Shown here: positions 3,488 through 63,960 of the stretch, in pieces | Position numbering within the stretch: position 1 is the stretch's first letter | Layout: every line of letters begins with the position of its first letter | Origin: a virus | Reading direction: 5' to 3' (one strand) | Virus record (IMG/VR): IMGVR_UViG_3300045391_000045 | Location: 1-64,000 of that record | Length of the DNA: 64,000 bases | The notes under the pieces: model-generated | What the model saw: the letters and a program-made list of their open reading frames with translations, nothing else | Databases searched by the model: none | Told to the model about the DNA's origin: nothing | Made by a program: the position numbers and the translations under genes

Positions 3488-3731
3488 GGCGCAGGGCTTC
3501 GGCCCAAGCTTAGGAGGAGAAATGTCAGAATACATGGATTGTGATGCATGTGATTGGGTTGACATTGGGGTAGGAATGCAAATGGTTCGTCCTGACCATT
3601 TCTGCCGGGTTAAGAGTCATCGAATCGATGCTTATGCATACTATGATGAACTACGTGGTCAAGAACTTGTTGATGCAGTTGAGGAAAATTGGCCACCATT
3701 TTGGGACCCTGAGGCGGTGAGTGTAGATTGA
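3471..3731 (+). CDS. hypothetical protein
   Basis: 86 aa ORF preceded by hairpin-AAGCTT-AGGAGG. Confidence 0.45.
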   Translation: MVRWTKAQGFGPSLGGEMSEYMDCDACDWVDIGVGMQMVRPDHFCRVKSHRIDAYAYYDELRGQELVDAVEENWPPFWDPEAVSVD

Positions 3732-4216
3732 AGGTAGGAATTACTGGACATAGACCAGAGCGTCTTGAGGACCATGAAGATGCTGTTAAAGAGCTTATAT
3801 CAGAAGCACTTCAGCAATTGAATGCCACCCGTCTTTATCAGGGAATGGCTGCTGGTGTTGACCTTTGGTCTGCTAAAGAAGCATGGAAGCTAAAGATTCC
3901 TTATGCTGCCGTGAAGCCTTGGGCTGGACATAAGCCAAGAGTAGCAGACCGTATTGAGTATGCTAAGGTTCTTAAGCACGCTACCGCAATTATTGATGTT
4001 GACCCATCAATCGAATACCCAGGAGCTTGGGTATACAACAAGCGAAATGAATTTATTGTTGATGAGGTGGGCACGATGATTGCCGTTTGGGATGGAAAGC
4101 CATACGGAGGTACATACAACTGCATCGAATACGCGTGGAAGAAGGCAATCCCAGTTTTGAGGATTGACCCTGAAGAAAGGGTTATTGAATATGTCAGCGA
4201 AGAAGTACCTTTCTAA
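3728..4216 (+). CDS. SLOG/DUF1273-DUF2493-like protein (VGITGHRP motif)
   Basis: N-terminal KVGITGHRP motif typical of YpsA/SLOG-type phage proteins. Confidence 0.4.
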   Translation: MKVGITGHRPERLEDHEDAVKELISEALQQLNATRLYQGMAAGVDLWSAKEAWKLKIPYAAVKPWAGHKPRVADRIEYAKVLKHATAIIDVDPSIEYPGAWVYNKRNEFIVDEVGTMIAVWDGKPYGGTYNCIEYAWKKAIPVLRIDPEERVIEYVSEEVPF

Positions 4217-4276
4217 GGCTTGGCTTTATAGGCAATTTGTAGTCTTGAAAAGAGATGCTGATGCAATCGCAGAGGA

Positions 4277-4981
4277 ATGCGGGGTAAATCGAAGAACGAT
4301 TTATCGAAAACTAGAAGATTTTGGAATCGTAAAGAAAAGATGATTGACAGATACAAGTATACAATCTTTAGCGTAGATGATTCTAGAGCGCACTATATTG
4401 AAAAGATGCGCCCTGTGCTTTCAAGTTTTATGGATGAAGTAGAAACATATTGTGTTGATGGCAGAATTCCAGAAGAGCTAAAGAAAGCACAAGAAAAGCA
4501 TCCATATGAAGTGAAATATGATGCGAAGGTTGGACAGCTAGGAATCTGGTACACTGTGCTCAATGCGCTGGAGAATGCGCCAATCCTGACTCTAGAAGAT
4601 GATGCGCTGCTGCATGAAAACTTCCCAGATAGGTTCGGATGGAATATCAGAGAGTGGCAGCACGATACCGACTTCTTCTCTTTGTTCCTTCCACGAGATA
4701 GTGACCATCTTTATGACGAAAATAGAGATAGGATAGGCCACTACACTTGTCGAACGTATCAGAGATACGGCGGGGTATCTATGTATTACACAAAGCAGGG
4801 TGCTGAAAAGATTAAGGCTTTGCTTGAAAGAGATGGAATTACAGGACAGTACGATGATACATTGTACGCATACTCTAAGGCTGGTGAGCTTAACGGTTAT
4901 TGCTCAATCCCATCACTACCTGACCTAGTTTATATCACAGGTCTAGAAGACAGTATCGTTCAGGAGACGGAATACGCATGA
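4277..4981 (+). CDS. putative glycosyltransferase (GT25-like), start uncertain (possibly 4338)
   Basis: ORF track; weak resemblance to LPS glycosyltransferase family; adjacent to GT2-like gene. Confidence 0.4.
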   Translation: MRGKSKNDLSKTRRFWNRKEKMIDRYKYTIFSVDDSRAHYIEKMRPVLSSFMDEVETYCVDGRIPEELKKAQEKHPYEVKYDAKVGQLGIWYTVLNALENAPILTLEDDALLHENFPDRFGWNIREWQHDTDFFSLFLPRDSDHLYDENRDRIGHYTCRTYQRYGGVSMYYTKQGAEKIKALLERDGITGQYDDTLYAYSKAGELNGYCSIPSLPDLVYITGLEDSIVQETEYA

Positions 4982-5634
4982 GAATTTTGGTTATTGTGCC
5001 TACTCGCGGTAGGCCAGACAATATCGTTCGACTCGACAGGGCGATGCTTGACACACAGGTTGATGTTGAGGTAATGTACTGTGTTGACGAGGACGACCCA
5101 AGTCTTGCAGATTATGTGAGAACTGGAATCCCGCTGGTTATTGGAACACGAAAGAGGCTTGTTGGAACACTGAATGATGTTGCCAAAAGATTTGCTGACG
5201 ATTATGATATCATCGGTTTCCTTGGTGACGATGTTGTTCCTCGTACAATGAGGTGGGACAATGCTATCCGTGACAACTTCAAGCCAAATATGGTAGCCTA
5301 TGGAAATGATGGCCACCAGCGCGAGGGACTTCCAACCGGGGTGTTCCTTGACGCACGAATCGTAAGTGTGCTAGGGTACATGGTAGTTCCAACGCTGATT
5401 CACCTCTTCGCAGATAATTATTGGAAGACTCTTGGTGAAGCACTTGGTACGCTTACATACTTGCCAGATATTGACTTGGAGCACATGCATCCGTATGCTG
5501 GTAAGGCAGACCACGACCAAACTTATGCCGAAGCAAATTCAGGTCCCGTATGGGAACATGATGAAAAGGCATTCAGGTGGTACGTGGAAAACGAACTAGC
5601 ATTTGATGTGGAGATTCTAAGTCTAAATGAGTAA
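4978..5634 (+). CDS. glycosyltransferase family 2-like
   Basis: N-terminal RILVIVPTRGRPDN motif typical of GT-A fold glycosyltransferases; DDD acidic motif. Confidence 0.55.
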   Translation: MRILVIVPTRGRPDNIVRLDRAMLDTQVDVEVMYCVDEDDPSLADYVRTGIPLVIGTRKRLVGTLNDVAKRFADDYDIIGFLGDDVVPRTMRWDNAIRDNFKPNMVAYGNDGHQREGLPTGVFLDARIVSVLGYMVVPTLIHLFADNYWKTLGEALGTLTYLPDIDLEHMHPYAGKADHDQTYAEANSGPVWEHDEKAFRWYVENELAFDVEILSLNE

Positions 5635-6079
5635 TGTAGTTTATACTGGTGGAACATTTGATTTGTTCCATGAAGGTCACGTTGAATTGCTCCGGTCCTG
5701 CAAGAGAATTGCGGGGCCGGATGGTCTTGTCGTGGTATCACTGAACACTGATGAGTTCATTAAGCGATTCAAGATTAATCCTCCGGTTCAGACGTACCGA
5801 GAGCGTGAGGTGGTGTTGACTTCCTGCCGATACGTTGATATGGTAGTGCCGAACGTTGGAGAAGAAAATTCAAAGTTGACTATCGAGAAGTTCATGATTG
5901 ATAACAAGCGTGGCGTAGATATTGTTGCGATTGGCTCTGATTGGGCCGGACGTGACTACTATGGCCAAATGGGATTCACCAAGGCTTGGCTTGATAGTCT
6001 AGATATCACGCTTATCTATGTTGATAGGCGTACTGGAATGTCAACTACAAAGATTAAGGATAAGTTGAGAAATGGCTGA
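5627..6079 (+). CDS. cytidylyltransferase (glycerol-3-phosphate cytidylyltransferase-like)
   Basis: GGTFDLFHEGH (HxGH nucleotidyltransferase motif). Confidence 0.65.
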   Translation: MSNVVYTGGTFDLFHEGHVELLRSCKRIAGPDGLVVVSLNTDEFIKRFKINPPVQTYREREVVLTSCRYVDMVVPNVGEENSKLTIEKFMIDNKRGVDIVAIGSDWAGRDYYGQMGFTKAWLDSLDITLIYVDRRTGMSTTKIKDKLRNG

Positions 6080-6266
6080 TGGACAGCACTACTCCGCCTG
6101 GCCCGATGATGGTATGTATCGTGGAGTGAAGATTCCAGCACGTATCAAGGCTAATTGGAATAACGTTTCCGGCCGGTGGTGGAAGCAGGGTGTAGATGAT
6201 ACACTTGATGCTGTAGCAGAGACAGAGGTATCAGATATGCCTCAGTTTGGAAGGTTTTTCGGATGA
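6072..6266 (+). CDS. hypothetical protein
   Basis: 64 aa ORF, start overlaps upstream stop. Confidence 0.4.
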   Translation: MADGQHYSAWPDDGMYRGVKIPARIKANWNNVSGRWWKQGVDDTLDAVAETEVSDMPQFGRFFG

Positions 6267-9164: not shown

Positions 9165-11000
9165 GTGGCGGGGCTATTGGCGTTTCTAATGTCATTTGAT
9201 TTTAACGACCTACTAAATATCCTGGACGGTGAAGATTTTGAAGAGCGTCCAGTGACCATTGAAGAATTTGTGCAGTCTGAGGATTACCTGGGGCTACCTC
9301 CCCTGTCCAAGTATCAGTACACCCTTATCAAAGCATCCACGCAGATTTACAAGCGTGAGACGTTGCATAACCTGTACGGGTTTGAGGAGGGTGAGAAGCG
9401 TTGGGCGCAGACCTGTAACGAAGTCATCTTCCAGCTTGGCAAGGGAAGTGGTAAGGACTACACTTCCACCATTGCCTGTGCTTACATCGTGTACTTGCTG
9501 CTGTGTCTAAAGGACCCGGCCAAGTATTATGGCAAGCCACCAGGAGACACAATCGATATTCTGAACATCGCTATTAACGCACAGCAGGCTACGAACGTCT
9601 TCTTCAAGGGCTTCAAGAACCGCATCGAGCGTTCGCCATGGTTCACAGGAAAGTATGATATCAAGAATGGTCAGGTAACCTTTGACAAGAATGTGAACGT
9701 TTATTCAGGTCACTCCGAGCGTGAGGCTTGGGAGGGATATAACGTTCTTTATGTTGTTCTTGACGAGATTTCCGGATTTGCTCTTGAATCTACTTCAGGA
9801 AATGAGCAGGCAAAGACTGCTGAGGCTGTCTATAAGATGTATAGAGCTTCAGTTTCATCACGATTCCCAGACTTTGGTAAGCTTGTGTTGCTTTCGTTCC
9901 CACGTTTCCGCGATGACTTTATTCAGCAGCGTTACAAGGCTGTAATTGCGGAGAAGGAAACAATTATTCGCAAGCACACATTTAAGCTGGACCCTGATTT
10001 GCCTGAGGGTACTGAAGGAAATGAGTTCTCAATTGAGTGGGAAGAGGACAACATTATCTCATACAAGACACCTAGAGTCTATGCACTCAAGCGTCCTACA
10101 TGGGAGGTTAATCCAACAAAGTCTATTGATGATTTCACTCGTGATTTCTTTGATGACCCGATTGATAGTTTGTCCAGATTCGCATGTATGCCGCCTGACG
10201 CTATCGACGCGTTCTTCAAGGACAGGCAGAAGATTGAGAAGGCTTTTTCTGCACAGGACACGCTAAATCCAGACAACACGTTCCGCCCCAACTTTATTCC
10301 GAACCCTGAGAAAAGGTACTATGTCCACGTAGACCTTGCTCGTGTTCACGACCATGCGGCAGTTGCTCTTGCTCACGTAGAAAAGTGGGAGCAGCGTAAT
10401 ATTGGTGGTAAGATGACGGAACCGGCACCGGTGGTCATTGTTGACCAGGTTCGTTTCTGGACACCATCCAAGACGAAGAACGTAGATTTTACTGACATTC
10501 GAGAATATATCCTGAGTCTCAAGAGACGTGGGTTCAATATCCGTCTCGTTACATTTGACCGCTGGGAGTCTCACGACACCATGCAGTATCTTAACGAGCG
10601 CGGGTTGAAGTCAGAAAGGCTATCTGTGGCAAAGAAGCACTATGACGACTTTGCTATGGTTATTGCTGAAGAAAGAGTGGTTGGTCCAGTAAATGAACTT
10701 CTAATTGAAGAGCTTTTGCAGCTTCGTATTATGAAGAATGACAAGGTTGACCACCCTCGTAAGGGTTCTAAGGACCTTGCTGACGCGGTTTGTGGAGCAA
10801 TCTTCAACGCTATCGCATATACTCCAAAGGAGGAGAATGAGGTAGTTGAGGTAAAGACTCTTGAATCTGTGAGACAGGAAGTTAGAAGAAACACTATCGA
10901 TGAGTATGAGCAAATGAAGAGTGATGGTGTGATTCGTGCCCCGAAGCGGAAGATGCCGAAGGAGCTTGAGGAATATCTTGCCAGAATCTCTACAATCTAG
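9165..11000 (+). CDS. terL: terminase large subunit
   Basis: Walker A GKGSGKDYTS, Walker B VVLDEISGF, C-terminal RNaseH-like nuclease region; GTG start. Confidence 0.85.
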   Translation: MAGLLAFLMSFDFNDLLNILDGEDFEERPVTIEEFVQSEDYLGLPPLSKYQYTLIKASTQIYKRETLHNLYGFEEGEKRWAQTCNEVIFQLGKGSGKDYTSTIACAYIVYLLLCLKDPAKYYGKPPGDTIDILNIAINAQQATNVFFKGFKNRIERSPWFTGKYDIKNGQVTFDKNVNVYSGHSEREAWEGYNVLYVVLDEISGFALESTSGNEQAKTAEAVYKMYRASVSSRFPDFGKLVLLSFPRFRDDFIQQRYKAVIAEKETIIRKHTFKLDPDLPEGTEGNEFSIEWEEDNIISYKTPRVYALKRPTWEVNPTKSIDDFTRDFFDDPIDSLSRFACMPPDAIDAFFKDRQKIEKAFSAQDTLNPDNTFRPNFIPNPEKRYYVHVDLARVHDHAAVALAHVEKWEQRNIGGKMTEPAPVVIVDQVRFWTPSKTKNVDFTDIREYILSLKRRGFNIRLVTFDRWESHDTMQYLNERGLKSERLSVAKKHYDDFAMVIAEERVVGPVNELLIEELLQLRIMKNDKVDHPRKGSKDLADAVCGAIFNAIAYTPKEENEVVEVKTLESVRQEVRRNTIDEYEQMKSDGVIRAPKRKMPKELEEYLARISTI

Positions 11001-12119: not shown

Positions 12120-12458
12120 ATGCAAACTGAAGCACAGAAGGCTGCCAAGGCAGCACATTATCAGGCAAATAAGGAAGCGTACAAAGCAAGATTTACAGCT
12201 CGTAAGCGATTGTTTTCTAGAATTGCGGTAGAGCTGAAAACGTTTAACCCGTGTATGGATTGTAAGAACTACTTCCATCCATGCGCAATGCAGTTTGACC
12301 ATCGTCCAGGAACAAATAAGCTTTTCCATGTCTCTGATTATGGAAAATTTAGTTCAGTAGTAAAGTTTCTGGAAGAGATTGATAAGTGTGACCTAGTATG
12401 TGCAAACTGTCATGCAGTTAGAACATATACTCGGCGGGTTGAAGAAGACTCTCAATAA
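12120..12458 (+). CDS. HNH endonuclease
   Basis: HNH motif FDHRPGTNKLFHV...CANCHAV. Confidence 0.6.
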   Translation: MQTEAQKAAKAAHYQANKEAYKARFTARKRLFSRIAVELKTFNPCMDCKNYFHPCAMQFDHRPGTNKLFHVSDYGKFSSVVKFLEEIDKCDLVCANCHAVRTYTRRVEEDSQ

Positions 12459-12480
12459 ATTGCCATGCGAGGAAAGAGAT

Positions 12481-13002
12481 ATGAATGACATAATGACACG
12501 CGAGGAGCTTATCCTTGCGATTGAGGCTAGAGACGGTTTAGACTGTTTCTTGTGTAAGAAGCCATTTTCTAAGGATGTAAATAGTGAATGGCATGAGGTA
12601 ACCATTGACCACTGGTACCCACAGTCTGTAGCATATGCAGAGGGATGGACCTATGAGCAGGTCAATGACCTTTCAAACCTTAGAAAGGCTCACAGACCTT
12701 GTAATACTCAAAAGAGTGACATTGTTCCTAATCCAGATGGTACGCTTCCTGAGCGTCCAAAGAAGGATAGAACAATTCGGGTCCCTCGTCCAGTGTCATG
12801 TGATACTTGCATGAATGGTAGAATTCTTCTTCTTGGAGAGCTTTGCCCAGATTGTAATTCTGGACCACAACCGGCTGCATTTCCTAAGACGCTTCAGAAG
12901 CGACCAAAGGAATGTGACCACAGTAAGTTTCACTGTTGGATGTGTGTCATCGGACACATACCACGTAAGAGCGCTATCCAAGCGATAATAATTGGAGATT
13001 AA
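12481..13002 (+). CDS. HNH endonuclease
   Basis: CFLCKK...HEVTIDHWYPQS...NLRKAHRPCN; RBS GAGGAAAGAGAT. Confidence 0.6.
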   Translation: MNDIMTREELILAIEARDGLDCFLCKKPFSKDVNSEWHEVTIDHWYPQSVAYAEGWTYEQVNDLSNLRKAHRPCNTQKSDIVPNPDGTLPERPKKDRTIRVPRPVSCDTCMNGRILLLGELCPDCNSGPQPAAFPKTLQKRPKECDHSKFHCWMCVIGHIPRKSAIQAIIIGD

Positions 13003-52349: not shown

Positions 52350-52367
52350 TAAGCTCTTGGGGGTACA

Positions 52368-52553: not shown

Positions 52554-52590
52554 AGGACTCGCCCCACGAAAGTGGGGCAAGCTTCAGGGG

Positions 52591-52831: not shown

Positions 52832-52869
52832 GGTAGTCATCATAACGACAAGCCAAGGAGGCTAACACA

Positions 52870-53220
52870 ATGAAGGTTTCGACTCGTGTCTCTCGCAAGG
52901 GCGGTATCTCCATCAAGAAGCTGGGGCGTCAGTCTCAGTCTCACAAGGCTGGCACGGTTGTCATGCGTAAGGTTCGCTTCAACGGCTCCATCCTGGGTGA
53001 CCTGGTTGAGGAGTCTCAGAACCGCTACGTGCCTCGTGTGAAGTCTTCTGTCACCTTCACGTCCGATGGTGAGCTGAACATCGTTCAGGGTATCATGGAC
53101 TGGGGTCAGGCTCGTTACATCAAGTCTCTTGGTGGTTACTACAACATCAAGAACGGTCAGCGTGTTGAGTCTGCGGAGTACGTCTACATCGTTGGTGACA
53201 AGATTTTCTACACCAACTGA
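52870..53220 (+). CDS. hypothetical protein
   Basis: RBS CAAGGAGGCTAACACAATG. Confidence 0.5.
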   Translation: MKVSTRVSRKGGISIKKLGRQSQSHKAGTVVMRKVRFNGSILGDLVEESQNRYVPRVKSSVTFTSDGELNIVQGIMDWGQARYIKSLGGYYNIKNGQRVESAEYVYIVGDKIFYTN

Positions 53221-53279
53221 TTGACACGCACCACCCAAGTCCTGTAAGGTATGACTACCGACAACGAAGGAGAAGGAAA

Positions 53280-53855
53280 ATGGCAACTGAGCGTGAGTAC
53301 CTGGTAACCCTTGGTCTGGCCAAGGCTGGTCGTGGCCGATTTTCGGCGGAAGCTAAGGCGGCCCTGGCAAAGGCTAAGTCTGAGGGAATGACGTTCGACA
53401 TGACTGCTGCTGAGGTTGCGAAGGCAGAGCGTCAGAACAAGCCTCAGAAGGTTCGTAAGACTGTCCAGGCTGTGAAGGAGGTTCGCCCCTCTCAGGATGC
53501 CTACGACGCCAAGTCTGTGCGTTCCTGGGGTGAGCAGGTGGGTATGATTGAGCGTGGCAAGCGTGGTAAGCTTCCTACGGCTCTCATCAACGCTTACCTT
53601 GCAGCGAACAAGACTGAGAAGAAGGTGACCGTTCGTCGGTCCGTTGGTAAGATTGACAAGGTTCGTGACGTTGCAGTAGGCTTCACTTACGCTCGTCGTG
53701 GTCCGAAGGACCCTGCCTTTATCTCTGAGCCGCTGGTGGCTGTTCAGTCTTGCGGTTCCTGCTCTAAGGGTGTAGCGTACTGCAAGTGCCAGAGTGGTCC
53801 CGTCGCCCCGAAGTACCTTGGTGGTGAGGTTCTGCTTCTGACTCGTCCGGAGTAA
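53280..53855 (+). CDS. lsr2: Lsr2-like nucleoid-associated DNA-binding protein
   Basis: C-terminal SVRSWGEQVGMIERGKRGKLPTALINAYLAA resembles Lsr2 DNA-binding domain (RGR AT-hook-like). Confidence 0.55.
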   Translation: MATEREYLVTLGLAKAGRGRFSAEAKAALAKAKSEGMTFDMTAAEVAKAERQNKPQKVRKTVQAVKEVRPSQDAYDAKSVRSWGEQVGMIERGKRGKLPTALINAYLAANKTEKKVTVRRSVGKIDKVRDVAVGFTYARRGPKDPAFISEPLVAVQSCGSCSKGVAYCKCQSGPVAPKYLGGEVLLLTRPE

Positions 53856-53950
53856 AAGTTCCCCGGCTGGGGAGTTGACACAAGACTCCCCAGCCTGATA
53901 GTCTTAGTACATCAAGGCAAGACAAACAAACTCTAAGGAGAATACAGAAA

Positions 53951-54973
53951 ATGCCCGCTGGTATCGAGACCTACAAGGAAATGGCCGCGTTCGCTTCTCT
54001 CCGTCAGCCTGCCTGGCACGACCTGGGAACCGTTTTCGATAAGCCTGTCTCTACCGCTGAGATGCTTGAGCTTGCTCACATGGCCGGATGGAACCTCCGC
54101 TTTGAGGACGCTTCCGACTGGATGCCCGGATTCACTTTCGTGGATGAGACGCTTCACGTGGTCCGCGATAACCCGTTCATTCCTGGTCAGAAGGATGTTC
54201 TCGGAACTGTTGGTGGTCGGTATAACATCTTCTCGAATGAGCAGATTTTCGACTTTGCCGACACTCTGACGGATGGTCGTCGTCGGTGGGAAACGGCCGG
54301 TAGCATTAAGAACGGCCAGAAGGTTTTCGCAACGCTTGTTGCAACCGATGACCTGGTTCTTGACCCGAATGGCTCTGGTGATGTTATTCGCCGGTACATC
54401 ATGCTGGTTTCGTCTCACGACGGTTCCACCACCATGATTGTTAAGATGGTGAATACGCGAGTGGTTTGCCAGAACACGCTCAACATCGCTCTTGGCGAGA
54501 AGGGTGCAGAATTCAAGATTCGCCACACTCAGGGAATGGAAACCAAGATTCAGGATGCAAAGAAGGCTCTTGGACTTGCTACCATCTACGATGAGGTTTT
54601 TGAAAAGGAAATGCAGGCGCTCTTTGAGGCTGAGATGACTCTCACTCAGTTTGAGAAGATTGTCATGGATGTTTTCCCTGAGCCGGAAGAGGACGTTCGC
54701 GGAAGTCAGAAGAAGTGGGATGACAAGATGGACACCATTCTGAACATGTGGCAGAATTCCACTGGTTCGGTTGAGAATCTTCCGAACAACGCTTACAAGG
54801 GCCTTCAGGTCCTTACCGAGCACAACCAGTGGTTCCGTGGAATTCGTAAGGACAAGACTGGTAACCCGAACACTGAGAACTTCCTCGCTGCGGGTGGCGG
54901 TTTCGACCTTAAGACGAATGAGTTCCGGACTGACATGTTCCTTCGAATGAAGGAATTCGCTCTCTCCGCGTAA
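53951..54973 (+). CDS. conserved phage protein (DUF932-like?)
   Basis: 340 aa, RBS CTAAGGAGAATACAGAAAATG. Confidence 0.55.
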   Translation: MPAGIETYKEMAAFASLRQPAWHDLGTVFDKPVSTAEMLELAHMAGWNLRFEDASDWMPGFTFVDETLHVVRDNPFIPGQKDVLGTVGGRYNIFSNEQIFDFADTLTDGRRRWETAGSIKNGQKVFATLVATDDLVLDPNGSGDVIRRYIMLVSSHDGSTTMIVKMVNTRVVCQNTLNIALGEKGAEFKIRHTQGMETKIQDAKKALGLATIYDEVFEKEMQALFEAEMTLTQFEKIVMDVFPEPEEDVRGSQKKWDDKMDTILNMWQNSTGSVENLPNNAYKGLQVLTEHNQWFRGIRKDKTGNPNTENFLAAGGGFDLKTNEFRTDMFLRMKEFALSA

Positions 54974-54979
54974 TACCTA

Positions 54980-55005
54980 GCGGCCCCTTCGGGGGCCGCA
55001 AGCTT
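54980..55005 (+). promoter_or_regulatory. conserved intergenic element: GC hairpin + CAAGCTT (representative copy)
   Basis: GCGGCCCCTTCGGGGGCCGC-AAGCTT. Confidence 0.5.
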
Positions 55006-55026
55006 TTTCCTAGGAAGGGAAAATAA

Positions 55027-55224
55027 ATGAATGAATTCGGCTGGTCGCTTATCGGTTCTGCTGTAGTTGGTGGCGGAATTACTATGGTTGCCAACGGTCA
55101 TTTTGGTCAGCACTGGAATTTTCTGATTGTATCTGCTATAGTATTTGTTATCTACTGGCTGGTGCGTCTTGGTTTCGGTGATGATATAGACTTTGACCTT
55201 AGTGACGTTAACCCGTTTGATTAA
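55027..55224 (+). CDS. small membrane protein
   Basis: 65 aa. Confidence 0.4.
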   Translation: MNEFGWSLIGSAVVGGGITMVANGHFGQHWNFLIVSAIVFVIYWLVRLGFGDDIDFDLSDVNPFD

Positions 55225-55264
55225 GAAAGACCGGGGTTTCGGCCCCAAGCTGCAAGGAGGAAAT

Positions 55265-56371: not shown

Positions 56372-56402
56372 CTGCCCCGTCAGAAATGGCGGGGTTTTCT
56401 TG
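56372..56402 (+). terminator. rho-independent terminator
   Basis: GCCCCGTCAGAAATGGCGGGG then TTTTCTT. Confidence 0.65.
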
Positions 56403-56415
56403 TCTCACTGGTAGG

Positions 56416-56445
56416 TTGACAGACCTACCAAGCTTGCTGTAGAGT
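56416..56445 (+). promoter_or_regulatory. promoter TTGACA-N18-TAGAGT (contains CAAGCTT)
   Basis: TTGACAGACCTACCAAGCTTGCTGTAGAGT. Confidence 0.45.
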
Positions 56446-56472
56446 TCTTCTCAGAACGAAGGGAGACATAGA

Positions 56473-57153
56473 GTGTCCAAGGCAACGTATCCTCTGGGTA
56501 AGCTGATGAAGCGTGACAAGGGTGTCTGCTGGCTTTGTAGGAAGCTTGTAGACCGTGACCATGCTACGCGTGACCACGTGATTCCGTACTCGCATGGCGG
56601 ACCGAATCATGAGGCCAACCTTAAGCTTGCTCATCGTAAGTGCAACGAGAAGCGTGAGAACAAGGTCTTGATTTCTAAGGCTGAAAAGCTTACAATTCTC
56701 CTGAAGGTACAGAGCCACATGTGCTTTAGGTGTGTAAAGCCTTTGCACAGTGATGATGCAATGATTTCTCAGGACTGCCCGCGTGGCTCTCTTCGTGAAA
56801 TCAAGATTGCAATTTGTAAGTCGGGATGCGAAAAGAACTATGGCATTCCCTTCCAGCAGCGTCGGAAGTTGAATGAGGTTCGCATCGCTAAGCGAATTGA
56901 GTCGAGAAAGAATAGGATTCCAATGGAAATGGTTGTTGCTGATTCTCTTTCTGCTGACCAGCTTGAGTCTGGCGATTACGTCAGGTTTTTCGCTGAGAAT
57001 GCTCTTCGGTTCGGAATTGTCCGGGATGTAGTGGACAATGACGAATTCTTTACCATCACCCTTGAAGATGACGTTGAGGGAGATGTTGAAGAGTACGCGG
57101 TTGACCCTGAAACCGTGTTTTCTCTTCTTGTTCATGAGGCTGTTGCAGTCTAA
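56473..57153 (+). CDS. HNH endonuclease (GTG start)
   Basis: CWLCRK...DHVIPYSHGGPNHEANLKLAHRKCN. Confidence 0.6.
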   Translation: MSKATYPLGKLMKRDKGVCWLCRKLVDRDHATRDHVIPYSHGGPNHEANLKLAHRKCNEKRENKVLISKAEKLTILLKVQSHMCFRCVKPLHSDDAMISQDCPRGSLREIKIAICKSGCEKNYGIPFQQRRKLNEVRIAKRIESRKNRIPMEMVVADSLSADQLESGDYVRFFAENALRFGIVRDVVDNDEFFTITLEDDVEGDVEEYAVDPETVFSLLVHEAVAV

Positions 57154-57166
57154 TTGAACGGGCGGG

Positions 57167-57196
57167 TTGACAAAACTCGCCCAAGCTTGCTAGTCT
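57167..57196 (+). promoter_or_regulatory. promoter TTGACA-N18-TAGTCT (contains CAAGCTT)
   Basis: GGGTTGACAAAACTCGCCCAAGCTTGCTAGTCT. Confidence 0.45.
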
Positions 57197-57239
57197 TCTT
57201 ACATAAGCCCAATGAAGGGAGAATTGTAAGGAGAAGACT

Positions 57240-57626
57240 ATGCGTAAGAATTGGATTATAGGTGGCTCACTAGCCATCCTAACAGCACTAGCCGTGCTGA
57301 TGGTACTATTGCTGAGTGGCGACAGTCACCACAGTAAGTTTGACAATTACGAAAGGTATGCAAAGCAGGTAAACGTTGTTGATTGGTCAATCAGCGAAGA
57401 TACTGCTAAGCAGTTTGCTGAGGCCAATTGCGATAAGCTCGCAGTAGGCGAAATGCCAGCAATTAAGTTTAGAAGCACTGACCATGTAAAGTCTAGTGCT
57501 GCTGTTCTAGCAGCCTATTGCCCAAACTCGCTTGACAATTTTGAGGCGGGTATTATTATGAAGTATCCAGAATACAAGAGTACAGCTCTCTACCTAAACG
57601 AAAGGCTTAAGGTTGATTCTCATTGA
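57240..57626 (+). CDS. secreted/membrane-anchored protein
   Basis: N-terminal signal/TM segment. Confidence 0.45.
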   Translation: MRKNWIIGGSLAILTALAVLMVLLLSGDSHHSKFDNYERYAKQVNVVDWSISEDTAKQFAEANCDKLAVGEMPAIKFRSTDHVKSSAAVLAAYCPNSLDNFEAGIIMKYPEYKSTALYLNERLKVDSH

Positions 57627-57882
57627 GACTCTTGTCAAGGCAGTCTGTTACGGACTTGCGGCGGCTGCTGGTGTTGTGGTAGGGTTCTACCTGTTCATGT
57701 TTATGGCAACTCACGGATGGCTGGGATGAAGAAGAATAAGATAAAGGACCCTTGGGAAGAATTCTTTGAAGAACTAGTAGGTCCATTCGTAATTGGTGGT
57801 GCCCTAGCTGCTCTTGCAATCTTTGTTCTTCCTCTGATAGGAATTGGAATCGGTATTGGCTACTGGATTTGGGGATAAGAGA

Positions 57883-58098
57883 ATGACTGACTATCGTGTT
57901 ACCGAAAGTCGTCACATGACTGCTCGTGTGGTCATTGGCTGCATTACTGCTATGCTCGTTCTGGTTGCGCTGATTGGTGGCATCACGTACACTGCTCATC
58001 AGAACAACGAGAAGGCGCAGAAGTTTGGCGTAGAGTGTATGAAGCATGGCGGAGAGTGGCGAGAGCGCAACAATGGTGAAGCGTACTGCGATAACTGA
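57883..58098 (+). CDS. membrane protein
   Basis: RBS GGGGATAAGAGAATG. Confidence 0.4.
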   Translation: MTDYRVTESRHMTARVVIGCITAMLVLVALIGGITYTAHQNNEKAQKFGVECMKHGGEWRERNNGEAYCDN

Positions 58099-58162
58099 GC
58101 AGTACGAGGGGGGTTGACTCTGACCCCCAAGCTTTGGTAAGGTTGTCCCACAACGAAGGGAG

Positions 58163-59125: not shown

Positions 59126-59198
59126 GACCTGAAAATCAGAAATACGCGGGGTGTTTTCCCTTGACACCCCGCAAGCTTGTAACACAAAAAGGAGAAGC

Positions 59199-59348
59199 AT
59201 GACTTTCACTGGTATTGTTTTCTTTGTGCTGGCATTCATCTGTGGTCTCTTCTCTATGGAGACTGAATGGCTAGCTAATGTTGCAGTGTTTTTCTTCGGT
59301 TGGTCTGTCGCGTTCATCATGCTTGGCATGGTACCCAAGAGGGGTTGA
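59199..59348 (+). CDS. small membrane protein
   Basis: RBS AAAAAGGAGAAGCATG. Confidence 0.4.
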   Translation: MTFTGIVFFVLAFICGLFSMETEWLANVAVFFFGWSVAFIMLGMVPKRG

Positions 59349-59373
59349 CACAGACCTCAGAGCAAGGTAAGTT
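59345..59373 (+). promoter_or_regulatory. promoter TTGACA-N17-TAAGTT
   Basis: GGGGTTGACACAGACCTCAGAGCAAGGTAAGTT. Confidence 0.4.
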
Positions 59374-59425
59374 AGTTCCTGTCAGAGCGGGTCACCCGCA
59401 TCGAACATAGAAGGAGAAACAACAA

Positions 59426-59737
59426 ATGCCCAAGCTCCGTGCGAAGAACGACCGTAGCGGTATCGCTGACCTTGGTGCTCACCACTCGTACAAGGCTCCG
59501 CGCATTCCCAACCCTCGCGTTTCCACTGAGGACTTCTGCGCTGACCACCACAGGCTTCAGGTGGCTCTTAGCCACAACCAGGTCACCGTGCGTCTTGCAG
59601 GAAAGGCCCTTGTTCGTCGTCAGAACACTGAGAACATCGAAAAGCTGAAGGCTGCTAAGGCGAACGTGCAGGTAACGAAGGAAATGATTTTCGAGCACAT
59701 CACGAATTGTGGTCAGTGTTCTTCGATTTCCGTCTGA
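59426..59737 (+). CDS. hypothetical protein
   Basis: RBS GAAGGAGAAACAACAAATG. Confidence 0.5.
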   Translation: MPKLRAKNDRSGIADLGAHHSYKAPRIPNPRVSTEDFCADHHRLQVALSHNQVTVRLAGKALVRRQNTENIEKLKAAKANVQVTKEMIFEHITNCGQCSSISV

Positions 59738-59785
59738 GAAACCAGGCCCGAAAGGGCCAAGCTTCCACAACAAAAGGAGATTGCA

Positions 59786-59974
59786 ATGGATGACGACGGC
59801 TTCCTCATTATCTTTTTCACCATGGTTTTTGCCGTGTTCATCATAATAATGGTAGCCTTTGCTGTCCATTCAGATGATAGTGGTGACCAGAAGCGTGAGG
59901 ATAAGCGATACGAAAAGTGTATCGACAAGGGAATGCAGTGGGTTGACGGAAACTGCATTGGTTCTGCAAAGTAA
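59786..59974 (+). CDS. small membrane protein
   Basis: hairpin-CAAGCTT-AAAAGGAG upstream. Confidence 0.4.
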   Translation: MDDDGFLIIFFTMVFAVFIIIMVAFAVHSDDSGDQKREDKRYEKCIDKGMQWVDGNCIGSAK

Positions 59975-60029
59975 TACCGGGCGGGACTTTGGTCCCGCTA
60001 AGCTTCCCATAAATCTAAGGAGAGATAAA

Positions 60030-60320
60030 ATGGGCGTTCGAAAGCAGTTCAGGAATTGGGCGTATGATGGTCGATATGGCCGTGACCCCAATCACAAGGT
60101 TTGGGGTGGATGGTCGAATCTCGTATCTGATGACCAACTCCTTCCTGGTGCTGAAATTCGAGTGGTTGATGAGACAATGTCCGTTGCATTCGAAGATGAG
60201 AATGGCGGCGGGACTTACGGAAACAATCAAGACCGTGAGAGGCTGATTCAAAGCTTTATCCGACACCTTGATTCTGGTCTGGAATTCACAGTAACCGTCA
60301 AGCGATATGAGGAGAGCTAA
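60030..60320 (+). CDS. hypothetical protein
   Basis: hairpin-TAAGCTT-CTAAGGAGAGATAAAATG. Confidence 0.5.
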   Translation: MGVRKQFRNWAYDGRYGRDPNHKVWGGWSNLVSDDQLLPGAEIRVVDETMSVAFEDENGGGTYGNNQDRERLIQSFIRHLDSGLEFTVTVKRYEES

Positions 60321-60598
60321 TGAGCATTCATGGCGGGGTTAGTCGGCAAATGACTCTTCTATCCTTTGAATGGAAGAAGAACATTGATGAATACGATGGA
60401 ACGCTTGATGAGACATGGCACCTTACCATTACGCTTGGATGGTGGGATATCACGATTGAGCGAATTCCAAATCGTAAGCACTTCAGCCTGAAGTATGGTG
60501 TCTGTGGTTTCGGATACTGGCTTAATGTTAATAGGAATTACGAGACAATTGAAAAGCACACATTCGGAGACGCAAGCGAAAGGTTGCTGAAGAAGTGA
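60320..60598 (+). CDS. hypothetical protein
   Basis: 92 aa. Confidence 0.45.
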   Translation: MSIHGGVSRQMTLLSFEWKKNIDEYDGTLDETWHLTITLGWWDITIERIPNRKHFSLKYGVCGFGYWLNVNRNYETIEKHTFGDASERLLKK

Positions 60599-60856
60599 GA
60601 TATACAAGGGTCATTGTTCACTTTACGAATGACAAGTCTGCTGAATTCAATCATGTGATTGAGCAGCAGAGTACAGATGGTGAGTATCGATTTGAAGGAC
60701 AGCATTATCATACTCGATACGCAGTAATGAAGAGGAACGTCAATTACATTGAGAGGATTAAGTAATGGGCGATGACATGCACCCTGCATCATGCCTTCTG
60801 TGGCTGATTGCAATTGGATTGGTTATCTGGCTTATCGTGGATACGGTGAAGAGCTA

Positions 60857-61036
60857 ATGACAAACGGTGAATTGATTGAGTATCTGAAGAAGTTTCCAAG
60901 GGATGCTCAAGTTGATGGACTTCTGGTTACTGAGCATGGTAAGATGTTCCCTGTGCTTGAGAGCAGCACCCTAGATTCTCAGGATGGAGAGATTTCCTGG
61001 GAGCTTTACACTGGTGAGGAATACGACTGTTCGTAA
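60857..61036 (+). CDS. hypothetical protein
   Basis: 59 aa. Confidence 0.4.
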   Translation: MTNGELIEYLKKFPRDAQVDGLLVTEHGKMFPVLESSTLDSQDGEISWELYTGEEYDCS

Positions 61037-61110
61037 TCCAAACCCGCCCGGATTTCCGGGCAAGCTTTCTTCCTATAATATAAATTGATTATGTTCAATA
61101 GGAGGATGAA

Positions 61111-61263
61111 ATGAAGATATGGATTATCAAGACTGAGTGCGCTTGTGGATGGTACTCTGGAGAAGAAATCGCTGGAGCCTACACCACTGAAGAAAAGGCA
61201 GAGGAAGCCTTGGAGGAATTCGACGGAGAGTTCTATTACATCAGTGAGTTGGAGGTAAAGTGA
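61111..61263 (+). CDS. hypothetical small protein (paralog of next ORF)
   Basis: RBS AATAGGAGGATGAAATG. Confidence 0.4.
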   Translation: MKIWIIKTECACGWYSGEEIAGAYTTEEKAEEALEEFDGEFYYISELEVK

Positions 61264-61408
61264 GAGTCTGGTTTGTAAGTGAAGGTAATTGTGATTGCTG
61301 TATGTACGTAGCTGCGGTCTTCTCTACCGAAGAGAAGGCCAATGCTTACAAGACAGATAGCAAGTATGTAGAAATTAATTGGCATATCGTAGACGAAGAG
61401 GATTAAAA

Positions 61409-61978
61409 ATGGCAACGTTTTTCACGAGTGACACGCATTTCGGTCATCAGCGAATTATCGAGCTGTGCGAGCGGCCTTTCGATTCTGTTGATGAAATGAA
61501 TGAGGCAATGATTGAGCGCTGGAATGAGACTGTAAAGCCTGAGGACATTGTTTTTCACCTTGGTGATGTGGCACTCGGTAAGATTGCTGAGTCCCTTCCA
61601 CTTATTGGTCGTCTGAATGGCAGCATTTTCCTTGTTCCTGGTAATCACGACCGCATTTTCTCTGGTGAAAAGGAGAAGCAGCGCGTTCGATTCCTGCCTG
61701 AGTACAAGAAGGTCTTTACTGGCATCATGGCTGAGAGCCTGCGTATGGTCCTAGGAGGCTCTGAGGTTATGGTGAGCCACTTCCCCTACGTTGGGGACTC
61801 CCATGGGGCAGACAGGCACGCTGACAAGCGTCCTAAGGATGAGGGTCTGCCTATCATTCACGGCCACGTGCATGATGAGTGGGCAGAAAACGGCCGGATG
61901 TTCAATGCAGGCGTGGACGTTCGAGACTTTCGGCCCGTTCATGAGGACGTGGTAGTTGACTGGCTCAAGAGCCTGTAG
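61409..61978 (+). CDS. metallophosphoesterase (YfcE/MJ0936-like)
   Basis: SDTHFGH, GDV, GNHD, GH motifs. Confidence 0.6.
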   Translation: MATFFTSDTHFGHQRIIELCERPFDSVDEMNEAMIERWNETVKPEDIVFHLGDVALGKIAESLPLIGRLNGSIFLVPGNHDRIFSGEKEKQRVRFLPEYKKVFTGIMAESLRMVLGGSEVMVSHFPYVGDSHGADRHADKRPKDEGLPIIHGHVHDEWAENGRMFNAGVDVRDFRPVHEDVVVDWLKSL

Positions 61979-62035
61979 TAGAGTGGGGGTTGTTCGAGAG
62001 GGACAGCCCCCAAGCTTCCCGGATAAGGAGATAGT

Positions 62036-62227
62036 ATGTGTGCTAAGTGTGGTATTGATGATACGAAGGTCACTAAGCTGGACTTCGTACTTGAAGTTGC
62101 TTGGATGATTGCAGCTATTTACCTGGGACTCACCACTGAGAGTTATGTGATTGCTTACATTGACGCAATCTTCTTCGTGGTACTTCTTAGCTCTGTTTGC
62201 GACAAGGCCAAGGCCGTTTTTGCATAA
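62036..62227 (+). CDS. small membrane protein
   Basis: hairpin-CAAGCTT-GGATAAGGAG upstream. Confidence 0.4.
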   Translation: MCAKCGIDDTKVTKLDFVLEVAWMIAAIYLGLTTESYVIAYIDAIFFVVLLSSVCDKAKAVFA

Positions 62228-62235
62228 TTCAATAT

Positions 62236-62253
62236 GCCCGAAAGGGCAAGCTT
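62236..62253 (+). promoter_or_regulatory. conserved intergenic element: GC hairpin + CAAGCTT (representative copy)
   Basis: GCCCGAAAGGGC-AAGCTT. Confidence 0.5.
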
Positions 62254-62276
62254 CCTCCCTAACCCTAAGGAGAATC

Positions 62277-62732
62277 ATGGACCTGTTTAACGCAGAACGT
62301 CACGCAAAGCTGCTCATGGCTGCATATGGGCTTACTGAAAAGGGTTGGCGTTTCGAATGGGACAATGCCGCCCGGCGATTTGGTCAGTGTCGCTATTCCA
62401 CAAAGACAATTTCAATGTCTCGTCAGCTCACTAAGCAGCGTTCCGAGGCTTCTGTCAGGAATACGATGCTTCACGAAATTGCTCACGCTCTTACGCCTGG
62501 TGCTGGTCACGGCCCGGTTTGGCGTGCAAAGGCTATCTCTATCGGATGCGATGGAAACCGTTGTTCTGATGACCAGGTTGAGGTAGATTACAAGTACGTT
62601 GCTAAGTGCCCCAATGGACACGTGGCAAAGAAGTACCTTCGTAAGCCTCGTGCAACTGCTAGGTCTCGTTCTTGCGGAAAGTGCAGTCCCGTTTACAATG
62701 CTAAGTACGCAATCAAGGTATACGCACTCTAG
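62277..62732 (+). CDS. SprT-like zinc metalloprotease domain protein
   Basis: HEIAHAL (HExxH) + downstream Cys zinc ribbon. Confidence 0.5.
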   Translation: MDLFNAERHAKLLMAAYGLTEKGWRFEWDNAARRFGQCRYSTKTISMSRQLTKQRSEASVRNTMLHEIAHALTPGAGHGPVWRAKAISIGCDGNRCSDDQVEVDYKYVAKCPNGHVAKKYLRKPRATARSRSCGKCSPVYNAKYAIKVYAL

Positions 62733-62807
62733 AATGGACTGGTTCCCCATTCTGTGAATAGGCGGGGGTTTTAAATAACCCCCGCCAAGCTTGTTTTAGG
62801 AGGTTAC

Positions 62808-62984
62808 ATGAAGGACACAGTTCCATTCAATATATACAAGGAACATGTCAAGATGGGTCACGAATGGAATGACCACACTGATGATTTGGAGAGATTCAAT
62901 ATCGATACGGTAAGTAAGAGAATCTATCGCTGTTCATGTGGCTGGATGGGATGGTTCAGAAGTGAAGATTTGGCTGGACGATGA
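62808..62984 (+). CDS. hypothetical small protein
   Basis: RBS TTTTAGGAGGTTACATG. Confidence 0.35.
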   Translation: MKDTVPFNIYKEHVKMGHEWNDHTDDLERFNIDTVSKRIYRCSCGWMGWFRSEDLAGR

Positions 62985-63273
62985 GCGTAATCCAAATGAT
63001 TGGGTAGAAAACCCAAAGTCTTGGTTTTGGGTTAAGAATAGCTATGATGCTATTGAATTGCTCGATGACATTCGTCGTAAGGGTAACACAGTTGACGTCA
63101 TGTCGTTTGACCATGACCTAGGGGGTAGCGATACCTCACGTCGTGTGGTACTGTGGTGCTGTGAGCAAGAGTGGTGGCCCAATGAGTGTCGAGTCCACTC
63201 TGCGAACCCTGTAGGATATGAGTGGTTGTCTGGTATGATTAACCGATACGCACCCGAAGGGACGTTGAAGTGA
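62938..63273 (+). CDS. hypothetical protein
   Basis: 111 aa. Confidence 0.4.
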   Translation: MAGWDGSEVKIWLDDERNPNDWVENPKSWFWVKNSYDAIELLDDIRRKGNTVDVMSFDHDLGGSDTSRRVVLWCCEQEWWPNECRVHSANPVGYEWLSGMINRYAPEGTLK

Positions 63274-63719
63274 AGGCTTACATGGTGTACCATCGTGACG
63301 CAGACTCATGGAATTCCAGCAACGAGCTTCCCAAGGCAGTGTTTCTTGACAGGGATGCGGCTGAAGGGTATGCTTCTAAGCAGCCTGGTTACGGGCTTAA
63401 TGTAGACTGGTTTGTCAAGGACGTTCCCCTGAATCCGGAGGTTAATATGAGCGAGTGGGCCGATGATGTTGTCAAGGAACTGGATGAGCAGTACAATGTT
63501 CCTGCGAATGTTGAGGGAAACATCGTAAAGAAGGTTGAAATTGACCTTCCTGGCAAGCACTACCTTGACATTACGAATCACAGCCTTTACGGTTTCATTG
63601 TCACACTGACAATTTGTGACGAGACTGGCGGGGTTATCGCTGAGAAGGAACTGCTTATTGGTGTTAAGCGGGAAGACCTTGCTAGTGATGTGGCAGGTAT
63701 TTACAATTCCTACGAATGA
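63270..63719 (+). CDS. hypothetical protein
   Basis: 149 aa. Confidence 0.5.
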   Translation: MKAYMVYHRDADSWNSSNELPKAVFLDRDAAEGYASKQPGYGLNVDWFVKDVPLNPEVNMSEWADDVVKELDEQYNVPANVEGNIVKKVEIDLPGKHYLDITNHSLYGFIVTLTICDETGGVIAEKELLIGVKREDLASDVAGIYNSYE

Positions 63720-63725
63720 GGGGTA

Positions 63726-63917
63726 ATGGGAATTAGAAAGTGGACGGACCTTACTCCATCTGAAAAGATGCAGTGGTTCGATAACTCAATACGAATGCAT
63801 GAAAACCTTCCTATCCAGAAGAAGCGCAAGATTTGGGCGCGGATTGAGAAGGAACGCAAGAAGGCTGAACAGAGAGCCAAAAGGCGTAAGCCTAAGTGGT
63901 GGCAGCGTAAGAAGTAG
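63726..63917 (+). CDS. hypothetical basic protein
   Basis: 63 aa. Confidence 0.4.
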   Translation: MGIRKWTDLTPSEKMQWFDNSIRMHENLPIQKKRKIWARIEKERKKAEQRAKRRKPKWWQRKK

Positions 63918-63931
63918 CCACATGGGAGGGG

Positions 63932-63960
63932 TTGACAGCCTCTCCCAAGCTTGCTAGACT
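63932..63960 (+). promoter_or_regulatory. promoter TTGACA-N17-TAGACT (contains CAAGCTT)
   Basis: GGGTTGACAGCCTCTCCCAAGCTTGCTAGACT. Confidence 0.45.

Follow-up and report, generated by a model that had tools for sequence, protein, structure and literature searches.

Results

A recurrent hairpin-AAGCTT unit in a Streptomyces phage

We analyzed 64,000 nucleotides of an approximately 130-kb Streptomyces siphovirus (the window; positions 1 to 64,000 of IMG/VR record IMGVR_UViG_3300045391_000045), in which a GC hairpin of free sequence, closed by a G-C pair and followed at zero gap by AAGCT(T), recurs between genes. This element is real, strongly nonrandom, and under selection, and it is the end mark of about 35 to 40 early-region genes in this phage group. 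Megablast aligned the window with the relatives Francob, Phredrick, Gilson, and Comrade at 82 to 87% nucleotide identity; Francob, Gilson, and Comrade are the nearest. GenBank places the relatives in Gilsonvirus (Stanwilliamsviridae; Loccivirinae), and the window corresponds to about 53 to 117 kb of Francob. Its genes, including 31 tRNA genes and one tmRNA, lie on the + strand throughout, as do all element copies described below. The element matched no Rfam 15 family at gathering threshold, where the window yielded tRNAs and the tmRNA only, and we found no published description of it in the literature on Streptomyces phages, Stanwilliamsviridae, cluster BK, or the BE1 genome announcement.

The original prediction had listed 32 copies of a GC hairpin abutting the motif, and all 32 are present, with AAGCT[TCG] starting at 3506, 17577, 26356, 29910, 31036, 31400, 34294, 36279, 37346, 37546, 44528, 45031, 45380, 46273, 47298, 47780, 49940, 51368, 52579, 55000, 55247, 56430, 57183, 58129, 59173, 59759, 60000, 61062, 62012, 62248, 62787, and 63947. 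Each has a perfect, GC-rich stem; abutment fails at 60000, where one extra T intervenes. Two copies lie beyond that list (15871 to 15891, and 49615 to 49647 with the tail AAGCTA), as does a near miss with the tail TAGCTT (32512 to 32535). Matches at 43045 and 58731 fall within open reading frames (ORFs) and are probably due to chance. AAGCTT was found 52 times in the window (20.6 ± 4.4 expected) and the composite of hairpin and AAGCT[TCG] 34 times, compared to a mean of 0.26 and a maximum of 3 in 200 dinucleotide shuffles. AAGCTT reads the same on both strands, so the opposite arrangement of hairpin and motif provides a natural control, and this occurred once in the window. When the hexamers following GC hairpins were tallied with no motif assumed, AAGCTT was far the commonest in the window, Francob, Gilson, and Comrade, on the + strand only.

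The unit keeps a constant distance from the upstream stop codon

Anatomy was measured on 170 pooled copies retrieved with AAGCT as the search key. Stems are perfect, 4 to 10 bp long rather than the 8 to 14 bp previously proposed, and contain at least four G-C pairs. C is the last stem base (position −1) in 97% of copies, a T follows AAGCT in 89%, and no conserved sequence was detected downstream of the tail in the pooled set. Tetraloops account for 54% of loops (TTCG, 44; GAAA, 30; plus TCCG and GCAA); the others are longer, several of them containing TTCGTAAAG or TTGACA.

Pairing begins 4 to 8 nt after the upstream stop codon in 83% of the 166 copies for which this spacing was determined (mode, 5 to 6 nt) and less than 4 nt after it in just 2; the linker sequence is not conserved. 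As ribosome footprints indicate, a spacer of about 6 nt puts the stem base where mRNA enters a ribosome positioned on the stop codon. The fixed geometry relative to the ribosome-binding site that had been proposed earlier was not borne out: AAGCTT lies 0 to 61 nt from the Shine-Dalgarno (SD) sequence in the pooled set and 9 to 51 nt from the start codon in the window. Since the stop-to-hairpin distance is constant whereas the SD distance varies, the unit is a feature of the upstream gene's end.

Two other sequence features accompany some copies. A second, weak hairpin with the SD in its loop directly follows AAGCTT at 34300 to 34333, 44534 to 44558, 47786 to 47816, and 55006 to 55025, and some of these (e.g., 34300 to 34333) hold the start codon within the stem. 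The octamer TCGTAAAG occurs 17 times in the window, where 1.6 occurrences are expected, and all but one are on the + strand (e.g., 46258, 47282, 49908, 49922, 52548, and 28604), almost always as a hairpin loop (UUU-CGUAA-AAG) whose stem is followed by AAGCTT or a T-tract. One octamer lies in the variable arm of a tRNA-Ser, and the octamer is kept in distant relatives.

Stems change by compensation while the tail is retained

Orthologous junctions were located by flanking coding sequence, without preselection for hairpins, in Francob, Gilson, Comrade, Annadreamy, Blueeyedbeauty, and one metagenomic contig. AAGCTN was kept at 57 of 58 such junctions, and 56 of 57 orthologous sites fold as a hairpin abutting the motif. 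Only three orthologs were identical to the window copy. In 25 orthologs the geometry is unchanged, and their stems show 14 double compensatory substitutions and 17 one-sided ones that preserve pairing versus 3 broken pairs. The hairpin had been rebuilt in another 29 (stem length, loop, even TTCG-to-GAAA swaps), 28 of which still abut AAGCTT. That stems change by compensation while the tail stays indicates selection on a folded single strand together with a sequence-specific tail.

Relatives with just 61 to 68% identity in the rIIB protein still carry the element. It is absent from Jay2Jay, of the sister subfamily Boydwoodruffvirinae, in which T-rich tracts follow the intergenic hairpins. In Jay2Jay, the Ro-like gene is followed by a hairpin (gcccctc-TTCG-gaggggc, with TTTGTT and a promoter after it) that is a clear ortholog of the copy at 17556 in the window. 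When 2.9 million viral contigs were scanned for exact patterns, multicopy loci appeared only in Loccivirinae-type contigs of about 127 to 130 kb.

One explanation of this pattern is a lineage-specific, phage-encoded factor (an endoribonuclease, a 3′-end binder, or a termination or shut-off protein) that reads the stem G-C pair plus AAGCUU and exerts temporal control of early messages, as T4 RegB targets early mRNAs. Such a factor would account for seven near-invariant positions across rIIB divergence down to about 61% amino acid identity, for the restriction to Loccivirinae-type contigs and the absence from Jay2Jay, for confinement to one expression block of the genome, and for the strict zero stem-tail gap, the 97% G-C closing pair, and the fixed orientation. 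However, neither the relatives' annotations nor a Pfam search of 25 proteins revealed an endoribonuclease, an RNA-binding protein, or a sigma factor of the kind the original prediction proposed to look for (most small ORFs are uncharacterized), and the match of the tail to a host RNase E consensus, described below, makes a new factor unnecessary. We hold this explanation as a serious alternative, clearly second in probability. Its more specific form, that the hairpin base and CAAGCUU are the site of a Loccivirinae-encoded RNA-binding or RNA-cleaving protein that punctuates early transcripts or shuts them off on schedule, is a shade more doubtful; if true, it would give these phages a sequence-defined mRNA 3′-end formation system of their own alongside tRNA punctuation.

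Junctions with tRNA genes separate the hairpin from the tail

Among the internal lines of evidence, the tRNA junctions discriminate best. All seven ORF-to-tRNA junctions carry a stop-proximal GC tetraloop hairpin without AAGCTT, one at 22619 to 22632 and the others just upstream of the tRNAs starting at 27696, 28553, 32006, 40299, 42102, and 43958. These hairpins end 2 to 5 nt before the mature tRNA 5′ end, which is the RNase P site, typically as ...gggc-AAT|G. In contrast, the tRNA-to-ORF junctions (at least 10) have an SD but neither hairpin nor AAGCTT. Because the hairpin is present at ORF-to-tRNA junctions and absent at tRNA-to-ORF junctions, it goes with the upstream ORF. AAGCTT itself is confined to junctions that lack a tRNA-derived processing site. 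On the upstream message, RNase P would leave the hairpin followed by AAU-3′, and a cut at AAG|CUU would leave the hairpin followed by AAG-3′.

This pattern reverses an option raised previously, that of a stabilizing 5′ hairpin left on the downstream transcript. A 5′ stabilizer or translation enhancer of the downstream gene was rejected: the hairpin follows ORFs even before tRNAs, is absent before ORFs that come after tRNAs, and, in the promoter-fused copies described below, lies upstream of the predicted start site. That it tracks the upstream ORF and precedes those start sites makes a 3′ cap more likely.

In the same tRNA-bearing region, positions 18913 to 18990 gave a tRNA-like Rfam match (34 bits) directly after tRNA-Arg (18836 to 18909) that was not called by ARAGORN. 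The Ro-like (TROVE) gene at 15934 to 17550 and its flanks showed no Y-RNA-like Rfam match nearby at gathering threshold. Further products encoded in the window are two RNA ligases, NADAR, a macro-like domain, DUF932, and a vWA/TerF-like protein.

The element occupies a block of host-type promoters and is mostly read through

The complete Francob genome contains 41 copies, all between 47.5 and 120.6 kb and most of them from 79 to 121 kb; the structural block, the minus-strand genes, and the last 8 kb are free of copies. Full TTGACA-N17/18-TAnnnT promoters and tRNAs characterize the element-rich block, which a strong canonical terminator at 121.06 kb closes. The Francob late/replication block (5 to 56 kb; e.g., 10566 to 10713, 12398 to 12485, 16816 to 16914, and 33389 to 33434) instead uses hairpin plus T-tract terminators, e.g., after the capsid and major tail genes. 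Promoters in that block are −10-only TATAAT boxes 5 to 7 nt from ATG, which suggests leaderless late mRNAs. The terminal 8 kb (121 to 128.8 kb), which begins after the 121.06-kb terminator and a 1.7-kb noncoding gap, is GC-richer, has intergenic gaps of 80 to 130 nt, contains neither AAGCTT hairpins nor either promoter type, and appears to be a third expression style.

Loose matches to host-type promoters in the window numbered 71 on the + strand versus 5 on the − strand. Examples are at 11297, 38898, 49626, 53875, 56416, 57167, 58114, and 63932, many with the −35 hexamer in the loop of a GC hairpin, and the 5′ untranslated regions after these promoters have ACAACGAAGGGAGA in common. Taking TTGACN-N16-19-TAnnnT as a promoter-like site, we found overlap with a promoter in 7 of 35 window copies. 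The copies at 49615, 56409, 57160, 58109, and 63923 have the −35 in the loop, AAGCTT in the spacer, and the −10 starting 1 to 4 nt later; in those at 31021 and 52561 the promoter follows directly. The hairpin-promoter at 38898 shares the design of the fused copies but has a T-tract tail. These findings correct two earlier statements, namely, that the motif carries no −35/−10 pair, since seven copies are built into sigma-70-like promoters, and that AAGCTT is fused to TTGACA in several copies, since AAGCTTGACA occurs only once (31036) and five other copies hold TTGACA inside the hairpin loop.

The lead hypothesis had been that the element works at the DNA level, as a phage-specific promoter or activator site, such as a middle or late promoter for a phage sigma factor or activator. 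The motif is indeed intergenic, oriented with transcription, and specific to one genome block; AAGCTT is palindromic, like many protein-binding DNA sites; and seven copies overlap sigma-70-like promoters. Nevertheless, AAGCTT comes as close as 0 nt to the SD and 9 nt to the ATG, and a transcript begun downstream of copies that abut the SD and lie 9 to 10 nt from the ATG would lack the SD; so short a distance to the ATG excludes a promoter located downstream of the motif. The position is fixed to the upstream stop codon and not to the downstream gene, stem covariation points to a folded single strand, and the element is absent both upstream of ORFs that follow tRNAs and from the Francob late structural block. 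In the fused copies, the gap between AAGCTT and the −10 ranges from 1 to 4 nt and the promoter elements are of the ordinary host type, and the flanks of the palindrome are asymmetric (C at −1 in 97%, with no partner at +6). A phage sigma factor or RNA polymerase is missing from the annotations of Francob, Gilson, Comrade, and Jay2Jay and was not detected by Pfam among 25 proteins (many small ORFs lie outside that scan); a WhiB-like factor is present by Pfam. The geometry, junction, and protein evidence thus do not support a promoter, which we regard as very improbable.

Canonical terminators, a hairpin followed by a T-tract, also occur in these genomes. In the window they lie at 48071 to 48105 (an 11-bp stem and then TTTTTGTATT) and at 56374 to 56404 (followed by TTTTCTTGT and immediately upstream of the promoter-fused copy at 56409); in Francob, one follows the capsid gene and others lie at 48.3, 110.1, and 121.06 kb. 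In contrast, for 26 genuine copies in the window no promoter-like site intervenes ahead of the next start codon, and up to six copies lie in series, as in the six of the 59146-to-62792 group that follow the promoter at 59345. These 26 copies must therefore be transcribed through, excluding an efficient terminator. The element shares the GC hairpin with canonical terminators, lacks their 7- to 9-nt U-rich tract, and does not coincide with the ends of transcription units; a terminator scan caught only 3 copies, because T's happen to follow the motif there. Efficient termination was therefore rejected, given downstream genes without promoters and canonical terminators elsewhere.

A weaker version, in which a U-tract-less terminator or attenuator stops a fraction of polymerases at each copy, perhaps only when the upstream ORF is untranslated, and so grades expression along an operon, deserves separate weighing. 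The GC hairpins with terminator-type tetraloops directly follow stop codons, and AAGCTT sits in the exact place of the T-tract of the Jay2Jay and 38898 hairpins. Terminators without poly-U tails have likewise been reported for phage phiC31, by Ingham in 1995. U-less structured 3′ ends are also common in Streptomyces Term-seq data (PMC8269248, PMC8914203), and for that reason the earlier argument that the hairpins are not ordinary terminators for want of a U-tract was insufficient by itself, although its conclusion was right. With 26 promoterless downstream genes and six copies in series, however, even modest termination at each would silence distal genes, and real unit ends in the same genomes use canonical terminators. 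Actinobacterial (mycobacterial) RNA polymerase needed a U-tract in vitro (PMC3993855). A position 5 to 6 nt after the stop codon also represses termination during coupled translation: moving an Escherichia coli terminator to 5 bp from a stop codon lowered its efficiency from about 90% to <10% through the terminating ribosome (PMC4824070). Partial termination also gives no account of why the tail is AAGCTT or vanishes before tRNAs. Termination at the position of the element would thus be unlikely, as would this graded version.

Individual copies and the small-ORF cassettes

The first copy (3494 to 3511; gggc-TTCG-gccc plus AAGCTT) begins 6 nt past the stop codon at 3487, is abutted by its SD, and is identical in Francob. 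Copies lie on both sides of the Ro-like gene: upstream, at 15871 to 15891, gccggt-AAT-accggc plus AAGCTT (gccggg-TAT-cccggc in the Francob ortholog), and downstream, at 17556 to 17582, gccccctc-TTCG-gagggggc plus AAGCTT. The copy at 26338 to 26361 (gcggccc-TTCG-gggccgc plus AAGCTT) has the same stem and loop as the near miss at 32512 to 32535, which ends in TAGCTT where more distant relatives have AAGCTT at the same site. A copy follows an RNA ligase gene (29892 to 29915), and in relatives an additional small ORF is inserted just before their copy. At 31021 to 31041, AAGCTT overlaps the promoter AAGCTTGACA-N18-TAAGAT, which drives the tRNA-Leu at 31086, and at 31382 to 31405 the stem ggtgggg-TTCG-ccccacc plus AAGCTT differs from that of Francob (ggcaggg/ccctgcc) by two compensatory pairs.

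Farther along, a copy with the loop TTCATAAAGAG precedes rIIA (34271 to 34299), and one with the tail AAGCTC lies between rIIA and rIIB (36263 to 36284). Six copies (44514 to 47785; motifs at 44528 through 47780) have no full promoter between them and end at the 48071-to-48105 terminator. The promoter-fused copy at 49615 to 49647 has TTGACA in its loop, the tail AAGCTA, and a −10 of TAAACT and is followed by five copies at 49913 to 55252 (motifs at 49940 through 55247). The three promoter-fused copies at 56409 to 58134 (motifs at 56430, 57183, and 58129) have the −35 in the loop, AAGCTT in the spacer, and a TAnnnT −10 2 to 4 nt after it; seven copies then occupy 59146 to 62792 (motifs at 59173 through 62787, including the one with the 1-nt gap). 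The last copy (63923 to 63952) is again promoter fused, with TTGACA in the loop and AAGCTT followed by gc and TAGACT.

After rIIB, copies at 37332 to 37351 and 37532 to 37551 form the left and right boundaries of a cassette for a 52-amino-acid ORF that has no counterpart in Francob. Small-ORF cassettes at 37352 to 37531, 55006 to 55232, and 62018 to 62234, each between two copies, are absent from Francob or replaced there by unrelated sequence. Such arrangements raise the idea that the element is a cassette boundary that favors recombinational acquisition, deletion, and swapping of small ORFs, with any RNA role secondary. The element is dense in a region of small, variable ORFs, three indels or replacements between the window and Francob are flanked on both sides by copies (37359 to 37532, 55021 to 55242, and 62031 to 62246), and seven copies are composites of a stem-loop and an early-type promoter; the stem-loop repeats of T4-type phages are a documented precedent for such a boundary (PMC4122927, PMC2839356). 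At the Francob rIIB junction, hairpin 1 is joined to the downstream flank of copy 2; the sequence is suggestive of excision of the 52-amino-acid ORF cassette between two AAGCTT sites. However, only about 7 nt are common to the copies, too little for homologous recombination, and the strict stop spacing, the stem compensation, and the tRNA-junction pattern would be left without account. About six further indels have a copy on one side, a count that carries no control for intergenic location, and some association with indels is expected anyway because whole-gene indels must break in intergenic DNA. We therefore consider recombination improbable as the primary role.

Discussion

The element resembles intercistronic processing hairpins but carries an invariant tail

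The element is most like intercistronic stabilizer or processing hairpins and the layout of tRNA punctuation. Intercistronic hairpin systems include the C(UUCG)G hairpins of T4, the 3′ stabilizers of the repetitive extragenic palindrome (REP) type, and the RNase III sites of T7 and SP82 early RNA. Like these, the element places GC hairpins, often with UUCG or GNRA loops, between cotranscribed genes, keeps structure while leaving stem sequence free, and presumably defines and protects the 3′ ends of upstream cistrons. Unlike them, it bears an almost invariant 7-nt C-AAGCU-U tail, which none of those systems has, and keeps a fixed distance from the stop codon, and its hairpins are too short for RNase III. 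In mitochondrial polycistronic transcripts, tRNAs placed among ORFs give the processing sites, and tRNA-less junctions use a substitute structure. That system is unrelated, and the analogy is one of layout only; the substitute here is a defined hairpin and hexamer.

Other likenesses are partial. As with actinobacterial RNase E sites, the tail fits RR|CNU and lies between cotranscribed genes in phages of actinobacterial hosts (PMC10641625, PMC6448022), although the known consensus is loose and has no adjacent hairpin, whereas the whole hexamer of the element is fixed. The promoter(early) stem-loops (PeSLs) of T4-type phages are also short stem-loop units that flank small variable ORFs in plastic early regions (PMC2839356, PMC4122927), and a subset of our copies likewise combines a stem-loop with an early promoter. 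Indels between close relatives break at PeSLs and, in several cases, at copies of the element, where intergenic location alone may account for it. PeSLs are, however, longer, sequence conserved, and always accompanied by a promoter; the element conserves 7 nt, is about 80% promoterless (7 copies only are promoter composites), and has its −35 inside the loop rather than after the stem-loop, and with only C-AAGCT-T common to copies, identity falls short of the level for recombination. The start-associated sequence (SAS) and extended SAS (ESAS) of cluster K phages are, like the element, lineage-specific actinobacteriophage repeats (11 to 19 copies in those phages) in one orientation in the nonstructural half of the genome, and inverted repeats accompany part of the SAS copies (PMC3203893). 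The 13-bp SAS contains the SD and is fixed to the start codon, and the ESAS inverted repeats are conserved in sequence, whereas the conserved part of the element is not an SD and is fixed to the upstream stop, with a tail-to-start distance of 9 to 51 nt, and its stems are free. Finally, the U-less, "I-shaped" 3′ ends of Streptomyces also consist of a GC hairpin right after a gene with a tail in the place of the U-tract (PMC8269248, PMC8914203); compared to intrinsic terminators, the element lacks the U-tract, must be read through, and has a conserved non-U tail, and canonical terminators coexist with it and mark unit ends.

A model of intercistronic RNA punctuation

Among the options raised originally, an RNA processing site is the one best supported by what we infer here. 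Specifically, we judge the chances about even that the element is RNA punctuation at the 3′ ends of cistrons, cut by a host nuclease. Under this model, the element would act in RNA, at the cistron 3′ end within long polycistronic early-region transcripts that also carry about 30 tRNAs. Host RNA polymerase would start at the many TTGACA-N17/18-TAnnnT promoters and read through the U-tract-less hairpins, each of which would stand as near the stop codon as a terminating ribosome permits (about 5 to 6 nt), many made stable by UUCG or GNRA tetraloops. An endonuclease would then cut the single-stranded tail, the most economical candidate being host RNase E at AAG|CUU. The upstream message would keep the hairpin plus a tail of roughly 3 nt and should resist 3′ exonucleases, and the downstream message would start just before a strong SD. 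Where a tRNA follows an ORF, RNase P would make the equivalent cut, hence no AAGCUU; where a tRNA precedes an ORF, tRNA 3′ processing would suffice, hence no element.

Several findings favor punctuation. Shown above are the enrichment, the anatomy of the unit, its anchoring to the stop codon, selection for structure over stem sequence, the invariant tail, the need for read-through with canonical terminators placed elsewhere, the distribution over genome and lineage, and the tRNA-junction pattern. AAGCTT replaces the U-tract, as seen in the Jay2Jay ortholog (TTTGTT) and in promoter-fused hairpins with either tail. Streptomyces is an actinobacterium with an RNase E homologue. Mycobacterial RNase E cuts single-stranded RNA at RR|CNU, with >90% of mapped in vivo cuts lying 5′ of C, and its cuts are enriched between cotranscribed genes (PMC10641625, PMC6448022). 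AAG|CUU fits this mycobacterial consensus at every specified position in 151 of 170 copies, and the other 19 differ at +3 only.

Other observations weigh against the model. The RR|CNU consensus is mycobacterial and may not be that of Streptomyces, and its authors describe the contribution of the flanking positions as weak. C-AAGCT-T is nearly invariant, which is far more information than RR|CNU needs, and the signal is confined to Loccivirinae, whereas the sister subfamily, with the same hosts, does not use it. Such lineage restriction is easier to reconcile with a phage-encoded factor, or with historical contingency, than with a general host enzyme; the phage-factor explanation differs from punctuation by a host nuclease in the trans-acting factor only. 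GCUU is predicted to be of only average accessibility, with a pairing probability (0.45 to 0.64; mean for the AA, 0.26) near that of background. The promoter-fused copy at 56409 comes after a canonical terminator, so that a 3′ cap there looks superfluous. The model gives no account of why the tail is a palindrome, and cleavage, its position, and its enzyme are all things that we infer from sequence.

Three other roles for the tail were considered and set aside. Tail-to-tail pairing between two copies gained −3.6 kcal/mol on cofolding, compared to −4.1 for a nonpalindromic control; pairing of GCUU(CC) with the anti-SD sequence was weak and inconsistent; and a link to HindIII-type DNA methylation was dropped, the methyltransferase of the relatives being a truncated C5-cytosine type.

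Significance

Almost no work has addressed gene expression in large lytic actinophages, and the element offers a clean, highly repeated, and easily mutable signal at about 40 gene junctions per genome. It also helps annotation by marking true gene ends among tiny ORFs. If intercistronic punctuation by a host nuclease is correct, the element would provide a compact natural cistron separator for Streptomyces synthetic operons and an in vivo readout of Streptomyces RNase E specificity, or, alternatively, a lead to a new RNA factor with sequence specificity. It would also mean that a bacterial virus organizes a 60-kb early region in the manner of a mitochondrial genome, with tRNAs and a hairpin plus hexamer serving as interchangeable cut marks.

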